DNA from: Glaucostegus cemiculus
Lineage: Eukaryota
Assembly (NCBI GenBank): GCA_976551045.1
Contig: CDPCPM010000102.1
Span: 2,790,001 to 2,854,000 of the forward strand
Direction of reading: 5' to 3'
Length of the DNA stretch: 64,000 nucleotides
The notes below the pieces were generated by a model. That model was not told where the DNA came from, did no database searches, and worked only from the letters and a program-made list of their open reading frames with translations. This document shows, in pieces, positions 4,249-34,248 of the stretch (the stretch's first letter is position 1; each line of letters opens with the position of its first letter). The position numbers and the translations under genes were made by a program.

Positions 4249-4733
4249 ATGAAAAGACCAAATAAACATCGACAACTCCAATTCTTCAGCCTCTTCAGCA
4301 GGAAACCTAAATCTAAGTCAAAGCTTGAGATGTCTGCCGTCACAGTTGAGGGAGTAAACACTAAAACAGAGAGTGAGGATGAGAAAAAGATGACCTCCTC
4401 TAATAGAACAATACAGTCCAACAGTAACGAACAGTTGTTGGGCACTCTAGAGTGTCCACTCTGCCTTCTTAGCCAGCCTCGATCCCAGTTCCCAGAGATT
4501 ATTTCTTGTCATCATCGTTCTTGTCTGGATTGCTTACAGCAATATTTGAAAATTGAAATTACAGAAAGCAGGGTCAACGTTGCCTGTCCAGAATGTTCAG
4601 AATTGTTTCATCCATCAGACATCCGTATGATTCTTAACAATGGCACTTTGATGGAAAAGTATGAAGAATTCATGCTGCGAAGATACCTTGCATCTGATCC
4701 AGATGCCCGATGGTGTCCTGCACCTGATTGTAG
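4249..4733 (+). CDS. RNF19A-like: RNF19-family RBR E3 ligase, coding exon 1 (N-terminus, RING1, start of IBR)
   Basis: ATG at 4249; translation ECPLCLL...[30 protein letters not shown]...[11 protein letters not shown]...RWCPAPDC matches RNF19A/B RING1; donor AG|gtatgt after 4733 (phase 2). Confidence 0.93.
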
Positions 4734-10088: not shown

Positions 10089-10294
10089 TTATGGAGTCAT
10101 TGCTAATGGCTGTGCAACCTGCCCAAAGCTGACATGTGAGCGCTCAGGCTGTGCAACTGAATTCTGTTATCATTGCAAACAACTCTGGCACCCGGACCAA
10201 ACCTGCAGTGAAGCTCGTAAACAGAGAGACGTGTTTGTGGCTGGGATAGAAAAACACTCTACCTCTCTTATTCACAGTGAAGAAACAGACAATG
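10089..10294 (+). CDS. RNF19A-like: RNF19-like coding exon 2 (IBR)
   Basis: Acceptor ctctacag|, [17 protein letters not shown]...[15 protein letters not shown], donor G|gtaaat; phases 2 to 1 fit neighbours. Confidence 0.95.
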
Positions 10295-16959: not shown

Positions 16960-17104
16960 CTGAAGAAATCAAGCCGTGTCCACGATGTGGTGCATTTATC
17001 CTGAAGATGAACGATGGAAGCTGCAACAGGATGACATGTGCTGTGTGTGGCTGCCAGTTCTGCTGGCTATGCATGAAGGAAATTACAGACCTGCACTACC
17101 TCAG
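16960..17104 (+). CDS. RNF19A-like: RNF19-like coding exon 3 (RING2/Rcat)
   Basis: Acceptor cttgtgtag|, [48 protein letters not shown], donor AG|gtacag; 145 nt, phases 1 to 2. Confidence 0.96.
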
Positions 17105-18024
17105 GTACAGCACAATAGATTCTTAACAATATTTAGAACTGTTCTGAACAGGATTTCATCTGTTGTCTAACTTCTGAATGGGGATTCAATTTTCTGTACA
17201 AATCCACATCACTGAAGTGAATGGGAGAATATTTTACATCTGTGTACAGCTACCTCAGCCTGAAAGATGTGATAAATACTGCATTATGTTTCCATTGTGT
17301 CTTTCTGCCCTGTGCCTGATAACTAATCACAAATAAATAATGAGGCAGGAACATGTTACCTGTACTTCAGCTAAATACAGTGTCAACTTGCATTTGATTT
17401 TCCCTTTTCTGCCACCCTCTCTGCTAGCTAGCAACAAGAAACCTATTTTCAGTCGTTTTTGCTTTTGAGGTGTCTCCCCTTGTAAAGTGTCATTAATGTT
17501 AAAGGTTCATTTAGCATTTTGGACACTAGATCAGGCATGTATGTCTGGTGCGTCTGGCATTGAATTACACCATATGCCAGCTGAAGAACCTGGATAAATA
17601 TAAGAGTGCAGACTGTACATTATACAAGTTATATGTGATAAAGAAGTTGCTTTTGATTTAGTTTGAATTGATTTATGTTAGTGCGCAATTTTCTTGATTT
17701 TTTTTATTTTGGATGGAAAAGTATCTTCATAAGTACATAATGGATTAATTCTTTCTACCTGCTTGAAGTGGGGTGAGGGGGTGGGGTTGGGTGGCAGGGA
17801 ATTTTGGATCCCTACAGTACTGCAGACACAACTAAGTTAGGTAAGCATAATTTGGTTTGTGTTTCATTCATTTCTTGTGGGGTGATCTACTTATTTGCTG
17901 CATTGTAGTTCTGGTTAAAAAGAATTATTTTTAAGGGGTCAGCAGTTTGATCCTGTATATGATTAATGTTTCATTTCTCACAGTGGAAATTGAATAAGTT
18001 CATTGTACAGGAAATAAAGCTGGC

Positions 18025-18780
18025 AATAAAACTGAATGTTGGGAATTCTCAGCAGGGCACATAATATCTAAGGAAAAAATGGGTAATATCTCGGGTCATT
18101 ATTTCATCAGAATTGGGAAATTTTGGAGAAGTAAGTTTTCAGAAAAGAGGAAGGATGGAGCGAATACAGAACATCTGTGATAGGAAGAGGGCAGAAGGGG
18201 GAAAAGGGCTCTGAGTGTGTAAATATGAAATACTCGACTGGGATTGCTGATTACCTGAAATTGTTAAATTGCAAGTTATGTAATGTGCCTGTTGGGAAGA
18301 TGAAGTGTTTATTGAGCTTAGTATTTGTGGGACCAGACAAAGGAGTCATAGTGAAGAGAATAGGCAATTAAAGTGATTGGCTAAGGTCACCCTTGCAGTC
18401 TGAATAGAGGTGTTCTGCAAAGCAGTCCTATAACCTGCTTTTGGTTGCCCCACTGCAGAGAAGATCATATTGTATGCAGTGCATTGACTAAACTGAAGTG
18501 GAAGTAGTACAAATAAATTACTGCCGTAACTGGGAAGGTAGTTGTTGGACTCTGGCTTGTGGTGGGTACCTGTCACTCAATTGAAATGGTCATAGGGAGG
18601 ATTGAGATAGACCACCTGAAGGTGAGAGTAGAGTGGAAGCTGACAGCATGGCTGATAATTTCATGTTCAGTGCAACAATATGAAGCAATACCAGTACAAT
18701 CATTATGTATGGGGCTTGGGGAGGGGGAAGTGAGGGAATAGACTTGAGTAGGACTGAAGCAAGGAATGTTCCATGTATCC
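18025..18780 (-). mobile_element. Penelope-like element remnant with GIY-YIG region
   Basis: Reverse of 18405-18460 reads ...ggggcaaccaaaagcaggttataggactgctttgcagaacacct (GETKRRLGDRFAEHL-like); terminal repeat with ctgatga at about 18050-18112. Confidence 0.65.
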
Positions 18781-20344
18781 TACAGACTTGAGCAGGACTG
18801 GTCGGGACCCCTTAGGCAGAGTCTTTATTCCCCTTTCTCATAACGACAAAAATCTTAGATATTTAAGTAAACTAGGATTGGATTGGATTTCATTAAGTTA
18901 GGAATATTGAGGTTTTTTTTAAACATTGTGCGCAAAAGGGCTTGTACTGTGCTGTTATGTTCTATGACAGATACAGAAATACTTCAGAACAAGAAGTTAG
19001 AATCTTGACACTAGGGCTTGTTCATTTAGCAGTGTCATCATGAAGCACTGTCTCCCAAAAGTCAAAGTCGAGTTTATTGTCCTGTGCATGAATACATGTA
19101 TAGATGCAATGAAAAACTTACTTGCAGCAGCACCACAGGCACATAGGATCAGATAGGCAACGTTCACAAGGAAAACATAGATTAAACATAAATTATACAT
19201 AATTTCTTTTCCAAGAATTTCAAAAGATTGTGGGTGCCAAGCCATTAGGATTTCCAAGACTGAGTTTCATAAGTATTTGTAGCTAAGAGATACGGAACAA
19301 AGGCAATTAACGTTATTGGACAAATAAGCCATTACCTAAAGGCAAACAGAGTTGAAGGACTGAGTAGCCACCTTTTAATCAAGCAGCCATGGGGAGATTC
19401 TAAATTATTCTCTCTGAGTGGGGAAAAAAGTGGCAGCAATGCTGAGAGGATGGTGGGTGGGCACTCAATAATCTGTGCAGAGCTGTTTTGATGAAGCAAG
19501 AGTTTTTGCTGCCACTCTGTACAGTGGTGGCTGAAGTAAAAGTGGCAGAGAGGGGAGAACTGCTGTTGATGGTGAAGCCTGGATAATGTTTGTCACATTT
19601 TTTCACACTGCATCATGAACAAAAACTATAATAGGAGTATAAAATACACTAGTCTGTACTGAGTAGGAGTATTTGCATGAGGAAGGTTCAAAATTTGCTT
19701 TCCCCTCTTAAAAATATATTGGTCAATTATGCTGTGATATCATTTTGTTCCTAAGAGTAATAAACTACACAGTGTCTAAGCTTAACATCAATAACTTTTG
19801 CTTTCTCCTTCAATTTTTCATTCAAGGAAAAGAATTTCAAACTAAAAATAATTTGCCAGTTTCACTGGCCTTCTGAAATCTGTCAAGCATTTATTAAACT
19901 GTCATGCACTAATGTTTTTTTTGGAATAAATAACAGTATTTGTTTTCTGATGGACTCTACACAGGGATTTAGTTCAGGTGATTTAAGAGGTAGCTGAGTC
20001 AATTTTAGTAATAACATATTTTCTGCCATCCAGTGGCCGCCATGGTGCCTTGCTGTGCAGATACCAGGATGTCTGTTTAGCAGGCAGCTCTAGGAGGACA
20101 AGTGCATGTGAAAACCCAACCAGCTGAAGGAAATGCCTAAAATGAGGTAAATGAGCAGGTTTGAGGATGCCATGGTTTGGCTAAAATGGTTTACAATTAA
20201 ACCGTAATCTTTTAGAATCCATAGCAAATATATAGATGTTCTGCAGCTAAACTATTGAGTTAGTTCATAAGGTGTGTATCCTACTTCAGCTGGTCATTTG
20301 ACCATAAGGGTATAGGAGCATAATGATAATGGTACCTTTTTATT

Positions 20345-20890
20345 TACTCATTTTCTCAAAAGAAGCACTTATTACCCATGCCTAATTGCCCTTGAGAAGG
20401 TGATAGTGGGCAGCCTTCTTGAACCACTGCAGACCTTCTGGTGAAGGTCGTACCACAGAGCTGTTTGGCAGGGAGTTCCAGGATTTAGACCCAGCATTAA
20501 TGAAGGAACAGGAATACCTTTCCAGGTCAGCTGGGTGTACGACTTGGAGGGGAACTTGAAGGTGGCGGTGTTTCCATGCATCTGCTGTCATTGTTCTCCT
20601 AGTGGTAGAACTGTGAGTGTGTAAGGCACTGTCACAGTGGCTTGGGTGAAAAAATGTACTGCAAATATATAGATGATATATTCTGTAGTCACTGTGCACC
20701 AGTGCTAGAGAGAATGGATGTTTTGGATGGTGAATGCGGTGCCAGTGAAATAGGCTGCTTTGTCTTAGATTGTGTCAAGCTTCTTAAGACTTGTTGATGC
20801 TGCCCTCATCCAGGCTGATAAGGCCTTGGAGTGTCAGAAGGTGAGTCACCCCCACAGGATACCCAGCCTCTGACCTGGTCTTGTATCCAC
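20345..20890 (-). mobile_element. Family-B LINE 3' fragment
   Basis: Reverse complement matches 33480-33880 (gggtctaaatcctggaactccc, ttcaagaaggc, gggcaattagg). Confidence 0.75.
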
Positions 20891-21349
20891 AAATGTGACC
20901 AGCAATCCCAAAGCCTAGACTAATATCTGATGGCATGGGTTCATATTCCACAGTAATAGCTAGAGATTTTCAAAACTGTTAATTTGATTGGTAACAGATT
21001 GTTATAAATAAACATTTGGTTTACTAATGTCCTTATAGGAAGGTGAATCCATATCTGGTTTGGCCCACATATTATTCTAGACATAGGCAACAGTTACAAG
21101 CCTATCGTGTTGCAATAAAATGTCTTAGAAAGCCATTCAGTTGTGTCAGACTATCATGTAAACCATCAAGTAAAACTAAGCACCAGACTGGAGAAAGGCA
21201 TTACCAGCTTATTTGACTCAGAAACAGAGGGGTTTTTCAATCATGGGATTTGGACTAAAATTGGACAGAGCTATTGCACAGGCCTATAGTCACAACAACC
21301 TGACTTTGTCATGTTCTTAATTTTTCCAGCCCAGTTTAATTTTATACAT

Positions 21350-23150
21350 CTGAGGTAATCTCTGTATGTCCTAAACTATTCCTCCATCTCTTTCCAGCCA
21401 ACAGGCATACTAGAGGTATGTGGTGGGATGGGAGCTGTCCATTGTATCAGATTATAGTTTTTTTTTGTGATTTTCCAACTATCACTTGCTCTCCAATGAT
21501 ATTTCATATTGAAAACTACTTGAGAGATGAACTGATCAGAAACATCACAGAATTTATTCTGATTAGTAATTTCAATCCCCATCATTAAGAGGGGCTTGAA
21601 GCATCATGTGACTAAACCATAAAGGACATAGCTGCCAGACAGCCCACAGCAGGTGCTGAGAGAACCAGCATAAGGGCAAAACCTATTCATGCTGATCAGT
21701 CTAAGCATTATCATGTGCCTGGCCATGATGTCATTGGTAGAAATGACCATTTCATTTTCCTTGCGGAGACTCAAGTCTGAGGATACCCTCCAAAATTGTG
21801 TGCCATGACCACGATGCTGAATGGGATTGACTAAGAAATGAACAAACAGCAAAAGAACTGGATGTCTGAGGTGCTGTGAGACACCAGCAGCAGTGGAAGT
21901 GTGAGCTCCCACTGTCTATCACCTTGTTGCAAGCATGTCACTCAGTGTTCCAACCTAGGGAGTTAATCATAGCTCAGAGGGTATTATGGAAGGATGTGCC
22001 AGGAGTAGTACCAGATGCATCTATAAATAAGATGCAAAGTAGTGAGCCTGCAATATAGGCCTATGTACATGATGAAAAGCAGAAACAACATGCAGTAGAT
22101 GGAGCTAAACAGTGCCACAACCAGTAAATTAGAAGAAAGCTCTGCAATCTTTCCACATACAGTAGAGAATGGGTGTGATCAATTGGGATAACTGGAGGGA
22201 GGAGAAAGCTTCCATGAGCATCCCTATCCTCAACTGCTGCAGAAGCTAGCACATGCATAGAAAACAAATATTTGCAACTGCCTTCAGCCAAAAGTGCTGG
22301 TTGGATAAATCGTCTTGACCTTCTGTGATCCCTCCTTTGCACTGAAGCTAGCCTCAGCCAATTGCATTACTGCTTATTTATTGTTCAATACATCAGATAC
22401 AGGAAAGACTTTGGATCTTGCCAATATGCTGACTGTAATACTGATGATATGTTCCATGATCAGCCCTCCTTTAGCTTTACTATTCCAGAACAACTAAAAC
22501 ATCAGTATCACTGGGAATACAATACCCAGATGTATTCTGTTCCCAAAAAACAAAGCATAGACAATCCATCCAAATACTATCCCATCATTTTCTCAAATAT
22601 TAGCAGGTTGATAGACAACACACACAAAAGGCTGGAGAAACTCAGCATTTTAGGCAGCATCTATGGAGGCAGATAAACAATTGAAGTTTTGGGTCATGAC
22701 AATGTCGTTTACAATGCAAGCAATAATATGCATTGTCTGCATGCAATAGCATGCTCACTGATGTGCACTTGGGTTTTGTAGAGCCACTGTTAAAGACCTC
22801 AATGCAGTCTTGATTCAAAAATAGACGGAAGCTGAATTCCAGAGGCAAGCCAGCAAGGCAGAATGTGGTGTCAAGCCCTGAGATTGTTGTAGATGGGAAT
22901 TGTCTTGGGATGTTGCTGCAGTTCTCCATGGCCATAGTTTCTCAGGTTAGAGTCCCCAGGCCCAACCATCGTCTATTTAATTATTGACCTTTCCTTCATC
23001 ATGATAAAAGTGAGGTGTTTGCTAATGGTTGCACCTTGTGGTATTTGTAACATCTAAGATAATAAAAGTAGGAAATGTATTCAGCAAGATCCTTCAACAC
23101 TCAGGATTGTGCTTCTAGTGGCTTAATGTTCTGGTGTGTGGCTGACAAAA
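21350..23150 (+). mobile_element. Highly degenerate family-B LINE internal fragments
   Basis: Patches such as ggcccaaccatc...tgacctttccttcatcat...gtgtttgctaatggttgc (22960-23032) match the RT segment at 32695-32775. Confidence 0.5.
22620..22700 (-). mobile_element. Penelope-type terminal repeat fragment
   Basis: gctggagaaactcagc...aggcagcatctatggag...gttttgggtcatgac matches the left arms at 29390 and 61697. Confidence 0.6.
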
Positions 23151-23640
23151 CTCCTCCTGCAAAAAGATTCTATTGGACGATAGTGTTGTCCAGAGGGTCA
23201 AGATAATAGATCTTATTTTTAATGAATGTTGAATGTTAGGCATTATCGCCTATGCTTTAAGCGGGCAAGTCAATGACATGGGGGTCAACCTCCAAGTGTA
23301 CAAGCTTTGCTGCAAACTACAGCTTAAATACTGAAACTGAGGTGACCTTTGTCCAAAATATAGTTCTAATAGGTTGAATGGTTTCTCATTAGTTCTGAAA
23401 ATTAGGTCTACTCGTGTGGAACATTTATCAGGGGGAGGTTCTGCATTGCAGTAAGAAAGATCAGAAAAATATTTGTTGAGGGAGCGATGTAGCATTGTTT
23501 GACACCAGTTTCTCACTGAGATTGGCTCTGCCATTGACCCATTTGGTAGGATCATGACTAGCATACCATCATGAAACAAACATAAGATGGAGAACTAGTT
23601 CTCCGGTCAACAGAATTTGAGAAAAGTACTTCATGGTCCC
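23150..23640 (-). mobile_element. RTE-clade LINE remnant
   Basis: FHDGMLVMILPNGSMAEPISV...VDLIFRTNEKPFNL, homologous to 46780-46990. Confidence 0.6.
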
Positions 23641-24634
23641 TTTTTGTTGATGGTTAGGGGTTTTAATGAAGTTGTAAAAAGGCATCTATAGTGTTTGGTG
23701 CTGTTCCCCAAGTTAGAGACGTTGTGTGGTGAAGGTCACATCTCTACTGTGCCTCTAGATGGGTAGAATCCACACTGATTTGAAGAGCAGCTGTTCAGCC
23801 ACTAGGAGTAGGTAATCAAGGAGGATCCCGGTGAAGACAGGAGGACTGTGACAGAAGATCGCAGACTCTTAGCACACTCATGCTTGTGCACACCTAGAAA
23901 TGAGCATAAAATGTACATCAATGTTTCCAACCTGACAAGTACACATTCCACCACCTTGTATGTAACTGGAACTAACCTTTTGCCTTGGGTTTTTTATCAT
24001 TTGTTTGAGGTCCACCTCCTGAAGTATGATTTTTTTGAAAGCATTAACCTTCATTCTGTTTTGCTCAAGATGAGCATCTACCCATGGCTACCGTTAAGCA
24101 AATGAGAACCTCCTGCCAGAAGGCCCACCAATGGTCATGGATGCTTGCTTTGTCTGCAGGCCACTGCTAACGTTCTGAATCTATAACTCAATTTCAAGTC
24201 AGTCTTCAATTTCAAGTCCAATTTCTGCTTTACTATTAGTCCACCACTTATTTTGGTTTGAAAAATGCTGCAATATGTACTTCTATCCTAGTATTTTTAA
24301 TATACAGCCTTGTATACTCTACAGTTTAGTGCTTTTGAATCTGTTTTTAAATTCTCCTGAGTAAAGAATTGACTTCAGTACCATTCAAATTTAAACATCA
24401 TTTTACTTACCTTTTAAGTGGGTTTGTCTGCTGCTGCCCATTGGCTTAGAAGCTGAGTTTAATAATCCAATATACTCATGTCAGTTATTTCCATGCACTC
24501 ATTGGCCTCTTATAGATGTTTTTGCAATTTATTAACTCGTGCTTCCTGCATTTAATTGTTTCTGGAAGTCACAGTCTTTGTTTCCAAAGGGAGGTGATCC
24601 ATTTAAACTTAATTTGTTATCCTTATGTTTATAG

Positions 24635-24797
24635 TCCCTCTGGCTGCACTTTCTGGGGCAAAAAACCTTGGAGCCGGAAGAAGAAGATTCTCTGGCAAGT
24701 GGGCATGTTGGTTGGTGCTCCAGTTGGAATTACATTGATTGCTGGCATTGCTGTTCCGGTTATGATGGTTGGTCTCCCTATCTATGTGGGGCGAAAG
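24635..24797 (+). CDS. RNF19A-like: RNF19-like coding exon 4 (end of RING2, hydrophobic segment 1)
   Basis: Acceptor gtttatag|, [55 protein letters not shown], donor AAG|gtaagc; 163 nt, phases 2 to 0. Confidence 0.96.
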
Positions 24798-25632
24798 GTA
24801 AGCATCAAATGAAATCATACACGCGCCTTTTGTATTTGCAAGGTTATCTTCCTTTTACTTTTGTAGAGTTTTGGTAAAGCAGTATGCATTTAATTATTGA
24901 CTCAAAACTGTAGTTAGACTTGGCAGAATATGTAAGTGTTTCTCCTGTATCTATTTTGCAAATATAGGAGTGGGGTGATTTTCTTGTATGTTTTATGTTT
25001 TTTCTCTCTCCCCTGCCAATCCATTCTAAGTAGAAAATAAGCTCTCACAATGTGGGAATTCTATCTCTTTCAGTCCATCTCCCTTCACTGTGAATTATTA
25101 TGGATGTTTAATTCTCCATTTTCCTGCTGCAGCACACCCATCCCAACCAGCCAGTTTCTTTTGTCACTCCCTCCAATTAAGTAGTATTCCAGCATGAAAT
25201 AAAAATGGAAACATTTGAATGTTCACAGCAGGTGAGACAGATTGAGTTGGAAGCAAAGTTAGTAATTGGTTTCCTATTGATGTATTTCTCTCATTTTCTC
25301 CTGTGATCATCTTTGCAGTGTGAGTAGCTTTCTGTATTTCTACATTCAGCATATTTCTCGTCAAACAGCACTCTTCCTAATGTGCTTAATGAACTTGATT
25401 GCGTTTTTTGCTGGAAGGATTCTAGTATATGTGTTGTGCTGTTAGTTGGATTTTACTACTGGTTGCATTTATCAAACACATTTATCAAACAAAGACTTAT
25501 AATGGCGTGTTGCATTTATCAAACACGCCATTATAAGTCTGTAGTGCTTTGCTTAAAAGCAATATGAATGATAGATTTATAAGATTCCTTAAAATTGAGT
25601 TATTAAAATAATTATGTGTTTACTCTTTACAG

Positions 25633-25747
25633 ATTTATAGTCGTTGTGAAAGTAATAAGATATCAAATCATAGACGAAGACTTGCTGTAGCTGGAGGAGT
25701 TGTTCTGTCCATTATCGTGTCTCCTGTGTTAGCTGCAGTGACAGTTG
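25633..25747 (+). CDS. RNF19A-like: RNF19-like coding exon 5 (not in the ORF track)
   Basis: Acceptor ctctttacag|, hand translation [39 protein letters not shown], donor G|gtaagg; 115 nt, phases 0 to 1. Confidence 0.95.
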
Positions 25748-26007: not shown

Positions 26008-26142
26008 GCATTGGCGTACCTATAATGCTTGCATATGTTTACGGTGTTGTCCCAGTATCACTCTGTCGTAGTGATTGGTGTGGAGTTACAACTGGAAATG
26101 GAAAAGGTGTAAAGATTGAAATAGATGAAGATGCTGCCTCTG
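26008..26142 (+). CDS. RNF19A-like: RNF19-like coding exon 6 (not in the ORF track)
   Basis: Acceptor ttttttaag|, [45 protein letters not shown], donor G|gtaagt; 135 nt, phases 1 to 1. Confidence 0.95.
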
Positions 26143-26523
26143 GTAAGTTTAACTAATATTTATTCAAGAACTAAAACTTGCCTAGTTAGATTTATTCTAC
26201 ATGTGTTCTAAATATTTAGCTCCCTGATTGTTGATAAAGTTTGTCATGTATCAAAGATGCTGGAAAAAACTCTCAAGAGTAGGAGGAATCCTTCTATCTG
26301 GCCTATACTCATTGCTATAGCTAACTTCTGAATGGTCCTTGTGACAAGTTATTGCATGTTGAAGAGTAAAACAGCAATCAAGGAGACATACAGACAATCG
26401 TACTTCACAAGAACGGTCCAATCTAGTCCACGATGCATGTACAAGCAAAGAAGATTGATCAGCTTTTCAGCATAACAAACAGTCATTCCCTTTGTCACAG
26501 ATGAATCTACTACCATTTCACTA

Positions 26524-29239
26524 TATTGTTCCTGGTTTTCATTGTTTTAAAAGGGATAGGGAAGGGGGGAGAAGAGGAGGAGGGGTGGCGATACTGGTCA
26601 GGGACGATGTTACGGCTGCGGAAAGGGTGGATTTTGTAGAAGGATCCTCTCTCGAGTCGGTGTGGGTGGAAGTGAGGAACAGGAAGAGTGCGGTTACGCT
26701 GCTGGGGGTATACTATAGGCCCCCTGGTAGCAGTAGAGATATAGAGGAGCAGATTGGCAGGCAGTGTTTGGACAGAAGCAAAAATAACAGGGTTGTAATA
26801 ATGGGGGGTTTCAACTTCCCGAATATAGACTGGGACATGCTCAGTGCCAAAGGTTTAGATGGGAACGAGTTTAAGTGTGTCCAGGATGGATTCCTGACAC
26901 AGTATGTTGACAGGCCAACTAGAGGGAATGCGGTGTTGGATCTGGTTTTAGGAAATGAACTGGGACAGGTGAGGGATCTACTGGTGGGTGAGCATTTGGG
27001 GGACAGTGATCATTGCTCGATAAGCTTTAGAATTGTCATGGACAGGGATAGGTGCAGAGAGGACAGGAAGATATTTAATTGGGGAAGGGCAGACTATGAG
27101 GCTATAAGGAGAGAACTTGGGAGTGTAAATTGGGAAGTCCTTTTTGAGGGGAAGTGTACTGTGGAGATGTGGATGTTGTTCAGGGATGTTTTACAGGATG
27201 TTAGGGATAAATATGTCCCGGTGAGAAAGAGGAGGAATGGCAAGGTGAAGGAACCGTGGGTGACGAGAGAGGTGGAACGTCTGGTTAGGAGGAAGAAGGC
27301 GGCTTACGTAAGGTGTAAGCGGCAAGGCTCAGACGTGGCCCGTGAGGAATATAGTATAGTGAGGAAGGAACTTAAGAAAGAGCTGAGGAGAGCTAGAAGG
27401 AGACATGAAAAGATGTTGGCTAGTAGGGTAAAGGAAAATACCAAGGCTTTTTTCTCGTATGTGAAGGGCAGAAGGATGGCTCGGGTGAAGGTAGGTCCAA
27501 TTAAAGACAAAGGTGAGAGGATGTGCCTGGAGGCGGCAGAAGTAGGGGAGGTACTGAATGAATACTTCTCTTCCGTATTCACCAAGGAGAGGGGTCTGGA
27601 TGACGCGACAGAGAGTGCTGGTAAGGGTAATGTTCTTGAATATGTAGCTATCGAGAGGGAGGAGGTGTTGAAATTGTTAAATAATATCAAGGCGGATATG
27701 GCTCCGGGGCCTGAAGGAATATTCCCTAGGCTGCTTCGAGAGGCGAGGGAGGAGATTGTTGATCTGCTGGTGGGGATCTTTGAGTCCTCGCTGTCCACGA
27801 GGATGGTGCCGGAGGATTGGCGGGTAGCGGATGTCGTTCCCTTGTTTAAGAAAGGTAGTAAGGATAGTCCAGGAAATTACAGACCGGTGAGTCTCACGTC
27901 TGTGGTGGGTAAGCTGTTAGAAAGGATTCTGAGGGATAGGATCTATGAACACCTGGAGAGTCACGGACTGATTAGGGACAATCAGCATGGCTTTGTGAAG
28001 GGAAGATCTTGCCTCACGAGCCTCATAGAATTCTTTGAGGAGGTGACGAGGAAGCTTGATGAGGGCAGTGCCGTGGATGTAGTCTATATGGATTTTAGTA
28101 AGGTGTTCGATAAGGTTCCTCATGGCAGGCTTCTTCAGAAGGTCAGAGGTCGAGGCATCCAGGGGAGTTTGGCCGTGTGGATCAGGAATTGGCTTGCCTG
28201 TAGAAAGCAGAGGGTTGTGGTGGGGGGAGTGCCCTCAGATTGGAGGGCTGTGACTAGTGGTGTCCCGCAGGGATCGGTTCTGGGACCTCTACTCTTTGTT
28301 ATATTTATAGATGACTTAGATGGAGTGGATGGATGGGTTGGTAAGTTTGCGGATGACACCAAGATCGGTGGTGTGGTAGATAGTGTGGAGGACTGTAGGA
28401 GCTTACAGAGGGATATTGATAGGATGCAGAGCTGGGCAGACAGGTGGCAGATGGAGAAGTTTGAGGTGGTGCACTTTGGGAGGACGAACTCCAGGGCAGA
28501 GTACGAGGTAAATGGTAAGGTACTTGGCAGTGTAGAGGAGCAGAGGGATCTGGGGGTTCATATCCACAGTTCACTCAAAGTTGCCTCGCAGGTGGATAGG
28601 GCAGTTAAGAAGGCTTATGGGATGTTAGCTTTTATAAATCGTGGGATTGAGTTCAACAGCAGAGAGGTGATGATGCTGCTTTACAAAACTCTAGTTAGGC
28701 CGCACTTGGAATATTGTGTTCAGTTCTGGTCGGCACATTATAGGAAGGATGTGGAGGCGTCGTAGAGGGTACAGAGGCGACTTACCAGGATGATGCCTGG
28801 ATTAGAGGGTATGGAATATGAGGAGAGGCTTAATGTGCTAGGGCTCTACTCGGAGAGGAAAAGGATGAGAGGAGACTTGATAGAGGTGTATAAGATATTG
28901 AGAGGAATAGATAGAGTTGACAGCCAGCGCCTCTTTCCCAGAGCGCAGATGCACAAGACGAGAGGGCATGGCTGTAAGATATTGGGTGGAAAGTTTAGGG
29001 GAGATGTCAGAGGGAAGTTTTTTCACCCAGAGAGTGGTTGGCGCATGGAATGTGCTGCCTGGGGTGGTAGTAGAGGCAGATACGTTGGACAGGTTCAAGA
29101 GATTGTTGGATAGGCACATGGAAGAATGTGGAATAGTAGGATATGTGGGAGGAAAGAGTTAGATTGTGAGATGTTTGAAGGATGGCATAACTTGGTGGGC
29201 TGAAGGGCCTGTTTTGTGCTGTATTGTTCTATGGTTCTA
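26524..29239 (+). mobile_element. CR1-clade LINE (HER1-like), 5'-truncated, near-complete ORF2, in intron 6
   Basis: ORF 26492..28765 has APE endonuclease motifs (YRPP, SDH) and RT motifs (NYRPVSLTS, GVPQGSVLGP, KFADDTK); premature TAG at 28763-28765, later frameshift, 3' tail gggcctgttttgtgctgtattgttctatggttcta. Confidence 0.96.
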
Positions 29240-31776: not shown

Positions 31777-31966
31777 TTAATGAGCCACGCCCAAGGTTAC
31801 ATAACCACAGTATCAGTGGTAGCAGTGTGCAAGAGGTAACCAGTGGTCTGAGTGCAAGTGGAAGTAATCTGGACAGAGCGGGTGTAAAACTGGAAAATGA
31901 TCAATCAGCAAGCACAGTAGCACTAGCAGGAAGCATGCTTAGTGCTGAACAGGATTCTTCAAACAG
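31777..31966 (+). CDS. RNF19A-like: RNF19-like coding exon 7
   Basis: Acceptor ttttctccag|, VNEPRPRLHNHSI...LSASGSNLDR...SASTVALAGSML...NR (RNF19 HNPSI / LSASGS / ASTMALAG motifs), donor AG|gtgagt; phases 1 to 2. Confidence 0.9.
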
Positions 31967-34064: not shown

Positions 34065-34248
34065 GGAGGGAAAGAACATAGAGGTCCATGTGGACATTGA
34101 AACAGAGCCTGGTGGGGCAAAAGACCGCAGCAGCAGTAGCTACTTGTCTGTTCACAGCTTGTCCATGGAATCACCACACTGTTCTCGAGAACTGTTATGC
34201 AGCACTAACCCAAACACTGAAAGGATTTCCATTCAGACCTGCGTATGA
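34065..34248 (+). CDS. RNF19A-like: RNF19-like terminal coding exon 8
   Basis: Acceptor ttttgttatag|, REGKNIEVHVDIETEP...ISIQTCV* (compare RNF19A EGNSMEVQVDIES and C-terminal AIQTEI, from memory); TGA at 34246-34248. Spliced CDS totals 1623 nt with no internal stop. Confidence 0.88.

Follow-up and report, generated by a model that had tools for sequence, protein, structure and literature searches.

A third RNF19 paralog of jawed vertebrates with arginine in place of the RBR catalytic histidine

The gene and its product

The window, i.e., the whole stretch of 64,000 nucleotides from Glaucostegus cemiculus that was analysed, carries on its plus strand a gene whose eight coding exons, located with orthologs as tblastn queries and by a splice search, extend from 4249 to 34248. 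All introns are of the GT-AG type, and the spliced product of 1623 bases is an uninterrupted open frame for 540 amino acids. Coding exon 1 (4249..4733) provides the ATG, a short basic N-terminus, RING1 (residues ~69-116) and the start of the IBR domain, exon 2 (10089..10294) IBR and the linker, and exon 3 (16960..17104, with AG and GT ends), which matches Pfam IBR_1 above cut-off and also the RING2 of ARIH1, parkin, and RNF216, encodes RING2 (Rcat) with the catalytic loop. Exon 4 (24635..24797) contributes the last zinc ligand of RING2, Cys283, and the first predicted transmembrane helix, exon 5 (25633..25747) a loop and the second predicted transmembrane segment, exon 6 (26008..26142) the end of the membrane region, exon 7 (31777..31966) a tail that is predicted with low confidence and likely disordered, and exon 8 (34065..34248) the stop codon, the tail being much shorter than that of RNF19A and RNF19B. 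Exons 1, 2, 7, and 8 are defined by tblastn and the splice model (exon 7 also by the predicted structure and exon 8 by alignment), exons 5 and 6 by the splice model and RNA reads. The evidence for expression is RNA of a related species, not of the source animal; its reads cross the modelled joints of exons 2-3 (9 reads), 3-4 (14), 4-5 (9), and 5-6 (15), counted in about 18% of the reads of run X21. In a single contig of run X6 exon 3 runs directly into exon 5, with 27 letters on the short side; this skipping of exon 4 (within 17105-25632) is possibly an artefact or else the trace of a minor isoform.

The product is 98.5% identical to protein P0122 from a skate and 92% identical to protein P0124 from a chimaera. 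Pfam IBR and IBR_1 are both found above cut-off, and a profile match to ARIH1 spans RING1-IBR-RING2 (E 5e-17). The order of the three domains, the catalytic cysteine in the RING2 loop and the intact zinc ligands, which as Cys or His are kept in 97-100% of 126 proteins of the clade described below, characterize the product, as judged from its sequence, as an RBR E3 ligase. Alignment, tree, hydropathy, and model place it in the RNF19 subfamily, in which an RNF19-type RBR is followed by two transmembrane segments: hydropathy peaks start at residues 297 and 348, and the AlphaFold model has long predicted helices at 293-340 and 345-383. This model is poor (mean pLDDT 52.5, RING2 blocks 64-75) and uninformative on the side chain of Arg254. 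Its top Foldseek matches are all RBRs, the best being RNF216 (8eb0, E 1.4e-10) with other RBRs nearly equal, and the ESM Atlas offered nothing more specific than "RBR ligase" for the product.

In the catalytic loop, Cys252 (TGC, 17022..17024, plus strand) aligns with the catalytic cysteine of ARIH1, parkin, and RNF216 and is present without exception in the 126 clade proteins aligned. Arg254 (AGG, 17028..17030, plus strand) occupies the position of the catalytic histidine, and Gln263 (CAG, 17055..17057, plus strand), which aligns with the Glu of ARIH1 and parkin, is the third triad position. The first-pass annotation had read these three codons correctly, as seen from the letters of the window and the spliced product, and had rightly excluded a sequencing error: in RNA-seq of the related species (24 reads of run X22) the codons are covered about 15-fold without a deviating letter, and both the Arg and the Gln codon recur in contigs from three further organisms. 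An assembly error or a private allele is ruled out by the RNA reads and contigs of these relatives and by the members of the chondrichthyan cluster dealt with below. The additional argument that AGG differs from the His codons at all three bases has no added meaning, because CAY to CGY is a single step and two silent steps lead from there to AGG. That RING2 was otherwise unchanged is nearly true; its 48 residues are 85% identical to those of the paralogs and thus not fully unchanged.

The description of the gene as intact and under purifying selection holds, as indicated by the open frame, the spliced RNA in a relative and the dN/dS of exon 3. All six differences in exon 3 that are listed for the contigs of the three further organisms are silent and none is a replacement; each contig has 7-8 differences there, of which 1-2 near the ends are unlisted, and even if all the unlisted ones were replacements dN/dS would be at most about 0.09 (29 silent and 112 replacement sites). 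For exons 2-6 the differences are silent in 32 of the 35 exon rows among those listed, with 230 further rows standing outside these, and a few of the difference rows may stem from paralog reads. A pseudogene or a gene under relaxed selection is ruled out by the open frame, the GT-AG introns, the spliced RNA and the silent differences.

Several other features lie in or near the window. Intron 6 harbors at 26459-29160 on the plus strand a LINE-like reverse-transcriptase frame of 768 codons, which we take to be of the CR1 type, together with a broken 3' part, and further LINE fragments are found between 51500 and 58600. Upstream of the gene, at a distance of about 60 kb, a minus-strand frame (L040, 1-3606) stays open for at least 1202 codons and encodes some 20 C2H2 zinc fingers. 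About 34 kb beyond the end of the window, and facing the RNF19 paralog, lies an A20/TNFAIP3-like gene with the start of an OTU domain and A20 zinc fingers (G000:C102:2888420-2888770, minus strand; L029-L030, L045), which is a useful synteny marker; a second, very divergent A20-like exon (37%) is on C106 (L046). Isolated copies of the central part of exon 3 that lack its flanking intron sequence occur about 670 kb from the gene (L004, G000:C102, 1502-1588; 87 bases, 97.7% identical) and on another contig (L005, G000:C207, 1493-1561; 69 bases, 89.9% identical).

A separate clade with arginine at the histidine position

The same genome contains on other contigs two further complete RNF19 RING2 exons, both with His (CAC or CAT) and Glu (GAG). 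When exon 3 was used as query, Arg/Gln was found among the best 120 of 811 matches in one chondrichthyan cluster and in two fragments, the other 117 being His/Glu. The cluster includes sharks, rays, a skate, and a chimaera with the same RING2, and Arg/Gln is present in 15 of 15 members listed of its 47. A search with one of the fragments gave Arg/Gln in all of the best 120 of 1253 matches, among them proteins of bichir, sturgeon, bowfin, and many teleosts; the query itself carries Arg, so that this listing is biased toward Arg. A profile search (best 150 of 7371 matches) added Arg/Leu proteins of sauropsids, namely of a worm lizard and of several birds including ostrich, eagle, quail, and sparrows. 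Tetrapod members came from the profile search only; a search with the N-terminal region yielded none.

A tree of 33 rows, calculated after masking both trait residues, unites the 13 Arg rows in one clade (100/99), which requires one His/Arg change and stands apart from RNF19A, RNF19B, and the lamprey and invertebrate sequences. The unmasked tree agrees. The gene thus groups with neither RNF19A nor RNF19B, and only the branching order of the paralogs varies, the clade being sister to RNF19B in the unmasked tree (85/79) and outside A+B in the masked one (86/82). The gene is not a variant RNF19A, nor is its clade confined to chondrichthyans; it belongs to a separate paralog with members in cartilaginous fish, ray-finned fish, and sauropsids. 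As far as sequences can tell, it is an intact third RNF19 paralog of jawed vertebrates, for which we propose the label RNF19C, and it may plausibly date from the vertebrate genome duplications. The source databases name the clade proteins inconsistently as RNF19A, RNF19B or "-like". Among the named rows of the matches listed there is no mammalian, amphibian, coelacanth, or lungfish member, which is weak evidence for absence from these groups, except for human, for which reviews give only RNF19A and RNF19B (PMC3305615). In the open literature covered, by titles and abstract openings, no paper was found on such a third paralog or on a loss of RNF19 in mammals, and passages of PMC7658342 and PMC1570150 mention no such paralog; an earlier description is possible. 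A fused teleost model (P0176) carries an ldlrap-like part at its C-terminus, for which there is no match in the window or in 200 kb of flank, and therefore no synteny can be derived from it.

The conservation of Arg254 was assessed with 472 stored proteins, of which 434 have a readable loop (the other 38 were not counted). With both trait sites masked in the classification, 157 were clearly assigned to the clade and 277 were others. All 157 clade proteins have Cys followed two residues later by Arg rather than by the His of the canonical triad, and Arg is found there in none of the 277 others. Six His-bearing proteins scored best with the clade references and were placed outside the clade because their margin over RNF19A/B was only 5 bits or less. 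In canonical RNF19s from insects to mammals His is kept in 102 of 102 aligned proteins, and in the tree it is ancestral for RNF19, being present in lamprey, sea urchins, and arthropods. It follows that His was conserved, changed once, and that Arg was conserved thereafter.

How much weight the invariance of Arg can bear depends on the background. Within the clade the loop N248-M255 is invariant, and five core positions are at least 98% fixed and unlike canonical RNF19 (126 clade and 102 canonical proteins), namely Arg254, Thr273, and, in the first membrane helix, M303, V321, and I328. The clade subtree comprises about 2.7 changes per site, at which a site of mean rate stays unchanged about 7% of the time. 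However, no variation is seen within the clade at 102 of 326 core columns, which places Arg254 in the constrained third and says no more than that, and most clade sequences are from closely related teleosts, retrieved with an Arg-bearing query. Outside the Arg clade, 7 of 121 readable RNF19-like representatives have another residue than His (Leu, Gln, Glu, Val, or Lys). The divergent RNF19-like proteins P0364, P0367, P0423, P0413, P0437, and P0448 are also without His (Glu, Leu, Gln, Val); three of these six could be assigned to a snail, a tick, and Seison.

The third triad position behaves differently. Of the 157 clade proteins, 137 have Gln, the residue of the fishes, and 20 have Leu, the residue of every sauropsid member whose loop can be read. 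Of the first-pass expectation that Arg and Gln together are fixed in a clade, the Arg half therefore stands, whereas the Gln half does not. The canonical RBR triad is Cys/His/Glu-or-Gln, with HOIP as an example (PMC7458406, PMC3940038), and Gln beside His occurs in three stored RNF19s. The proposal that two triad positions had been rewired in a coupled manner has to be given up, since Gln is normal in RBRs and changes to Leu while Arg stays. A change from Gln to Leu is as expected if the third residue lost its His partner.

Comparison with known RBR ligases

The closest relatives are RNF19A (Dorfin) and RNF19B (NKLAM), with which the paralog shares RING1-IBR-RING2 followed by two hydrophobic segments, the same exon-3 boundaries, a RING2 exon 85% identical to both same-genome paralogs, and about 60% identity over aligned residues. 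It differs in forming a separate clade, in having Arg for His and Gln or Leu for Glu, and in its tails, which are shorter at both ends (540 amino acids versus 695-802 for the sawshark paralogs). RNF19A and RNF19B need the RBR, the catalytic Cys, and a membrane segment to ubiquitinate BRD1732 with UBE2L3 (PMC13038411; PMC13270118). With recombinant RNF19 this reaction could not be reconstituted (PMC13038411), so that work in cells may be required to follow it.

RNF216 (TRIAD3; 7m4n/7m4m/8eb0) resembles the paralog in its C-N-R-M loop and in Gln at the third position. In PDB 7m4n it reads (C688A)-N-R-M...Q at the aligned places; this match is short (E 0.75), and the chain also matches the whole of exon 3 (E 0.0015). 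The likeness noted in the first-pass annotation is thus real, and so is its convergence: because His is ancestral in RNF19, the Arg loop was reached independently. RNF216 is active despite the missing His (PMC7458406), and it also ubiquitinates maltose in vitro (PMC9834252), so that lysine is not the only acceptor open to a His-less site. This does not mean that the two ligases are equivalent. RNF216 belongs to another RBR subfamily (24% identity), and it has in RING2 a zinc-finger insert that binds the acceptor and to which its K63 chain specificity is tied (PMC9834252, PMC9853177), whereas RING2 of the paralog aligns to that of RNF19A/B without such an insert. The analogy is therefore partial, and the RNF216-like linkage preference that had been suggested does not follow.

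HOIL-1 (RBCK1) likewise has no His at the canonical position (Trp462), but His510 from its C-terminal zinc cluster substitutes for it (PMC9853177, PMC9834252). Among 13 full-length members of the Arg clade there is no conserved substitute His; only His89, 190, 196, and 276 are conserved, which are common to canonical RNF19, and a substitute of the HOIL-1 type is therefore unlikely. HOIP (RNF31) is similar in having Gln as third triad residue (PMC3940038; also at the HOIP-like locus L006), but it keeps His and requires it for chain formation. Thioester formation persists in HOIP H887A, in the corresponding HHARI mutant, and in HOIL-1 H510A (PMC7458406, PMC9834252). The His mutants of HOIP and HHARI lose the second step, and chain formation by HOIP stops; parkin H433A is impaired in both steps (PMC7458406). 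In HOIL-1 H510A transfer to hydroxyl (Ser) is lost and transfer to lysine is gained (PMC11962058). His is not required for membership in the RBR family (PMC7458406).

A Pfam search of the genome gave 19 matches, 14 of them with a readable catalytic loop. His is present in 7 of these; the other 7 have Gln, Gln, Arg (the RNF19 paralog), Trp, Lys, Tyr, and Ser, and His-less sites are therefore common among RBRs. From their loop motifs, some of these loci are presumably RNF144-like and RNF14-like. What is new, judging by the alignments, is that a His-less site has arisen inside the RNF19 subfamily. A RING2 exon called parkin by its likeness to parkin chains (L013, G000:C108:7951067-7951180) keeps Cys and His and reads Gln where parkin has Glu444, and two RING2-like exons in which Tyr or Ser replaces the His (L017, G000:C783; L023, G000:C238) belong to no recognised RBR.

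Ubiquitin transfer without the histidine

We consider the protein with its fixed Arg as likely active, i.e., as a membrane-anchored RBR ligase that passes on ubiquitin without a general base, a reading in which we have somewhat more trust than doubt. RING1 would bind E2~Ub (with UBE2L3 as E2, as for RNF19A/B), and Cys252 would take over ubiquitin as thioester, the step that is independent of His in HOIP, HHARI, and HOIL-1. Arg254, which cannot serve as a base at neutral pH, may instead position a particular acceptor or keep it in place, or stabilise a negatively charged intermediate, and ubiquitin would then pass to a well-placed lysine on a more restricted range of substrates close to the membrane. 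Once His had been lost, the residue at the third position would have nothing left to polarise and may have drifted from Glu via Gln to Leu. Against this reading stand the failure of HOIP chain formation without His and the impairment of both steps in parkin (PMC7458406), the partial nature of the RNF216 analogy, given that the paralog lacks the acceptor-binding insert, the modification of maltose by RNF216, by which a His-less site is not lysine-only (PMC9834252), and the frequency of invariant columns in a teleost-heavy sample biased by an Arg-bearing query.

That the change is simply tolerated appears unlikely to us. In that case His would be of minor importance in RNF19-type ligases, Arg254 would be structural, and the paralog would do the chemistry of RNF19A/B in another place or tissue. 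The His-less loops in half of the readable RBRs of the genome and in the 7 RNF19-like representatives outside the Arg clade agree with this, as does the variable importance of the triad residues (PMC7458406, PMC9834252), but His is kept throughout the canonical RNF19s and Arg never reverts in the clade. Quite unlikely is a stalled or regulatory ligase, which would load ubiquitin and unload it slowly or only with a base from a partner or the substrate and which in the extreme would be an E2~Ub scaffold or a damper of RNF19A/B. The His mutants of HOIP and HOIL-1 indeed accumulate the thioester (PMC7458406, PMC9834252), and the long stem branches (0.21 to the clade, 0.46 to bony vertebrates) and the apparent loss in mammals point in the same direction; Cys252 and the loop are, however, invariant, which speaks against a pure scaffold because the Cys of a scaffold would be expected to drift.

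More far-reaching, and in our view highly improbable, is a changed class of acceptor, with Arg254 binding an anionic non-lysine acceptor at the membrane such as a phospholipid head group, a phosphorylated residue, or a sugar phosphate. It would fit the predicted membrane anchor directly after RING2, the three of five clade-fixed changes that fall in the first membrane helix, the ubiquitination of the small molecule BRD1732 by RNF19A/B in cells (PMC13038411), and the activity of RNF216 on maltose (PMC9834252). Hydroxyl transfer by HOIL-1 is, however, enabled by a His (PMC11962058), and no data point to a specific non-protein acceptor. In its boldest form, which we regard as very unlikely, the paralog would be a vertebrate RBR lost from mammals whose Arg active site is more than 400 million years old and serves another acceptor class at membranes (anionic lipid, sugar phosphate, or phosphorylated substrate). 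If this were true, one His/Arg swap in an almost identical RING2 would set the acceptor of an RBR ligase.

The value of the paralog lies in its being one half of a near-matched natural pair for testing the role of the RBR histidine. The known His-less RBRs, RNF216 and HOIL-1, are set apart from those with His by many further features, whereas three paralogs of one animal with RING2 exons 85% identical, two with His and one with Arg, allow a clean comparison, with the Leu of birds at the third position as a further natural variant. A cell assay exists in the ubiquitination of BRD1732 in RNF19A/B double-knockout cells (PMC13038411). Finally, the annotation is corrected: fish, lizards, and birds have a third RNF19 gene, which is currently filed as RNF19A or RNF19B.
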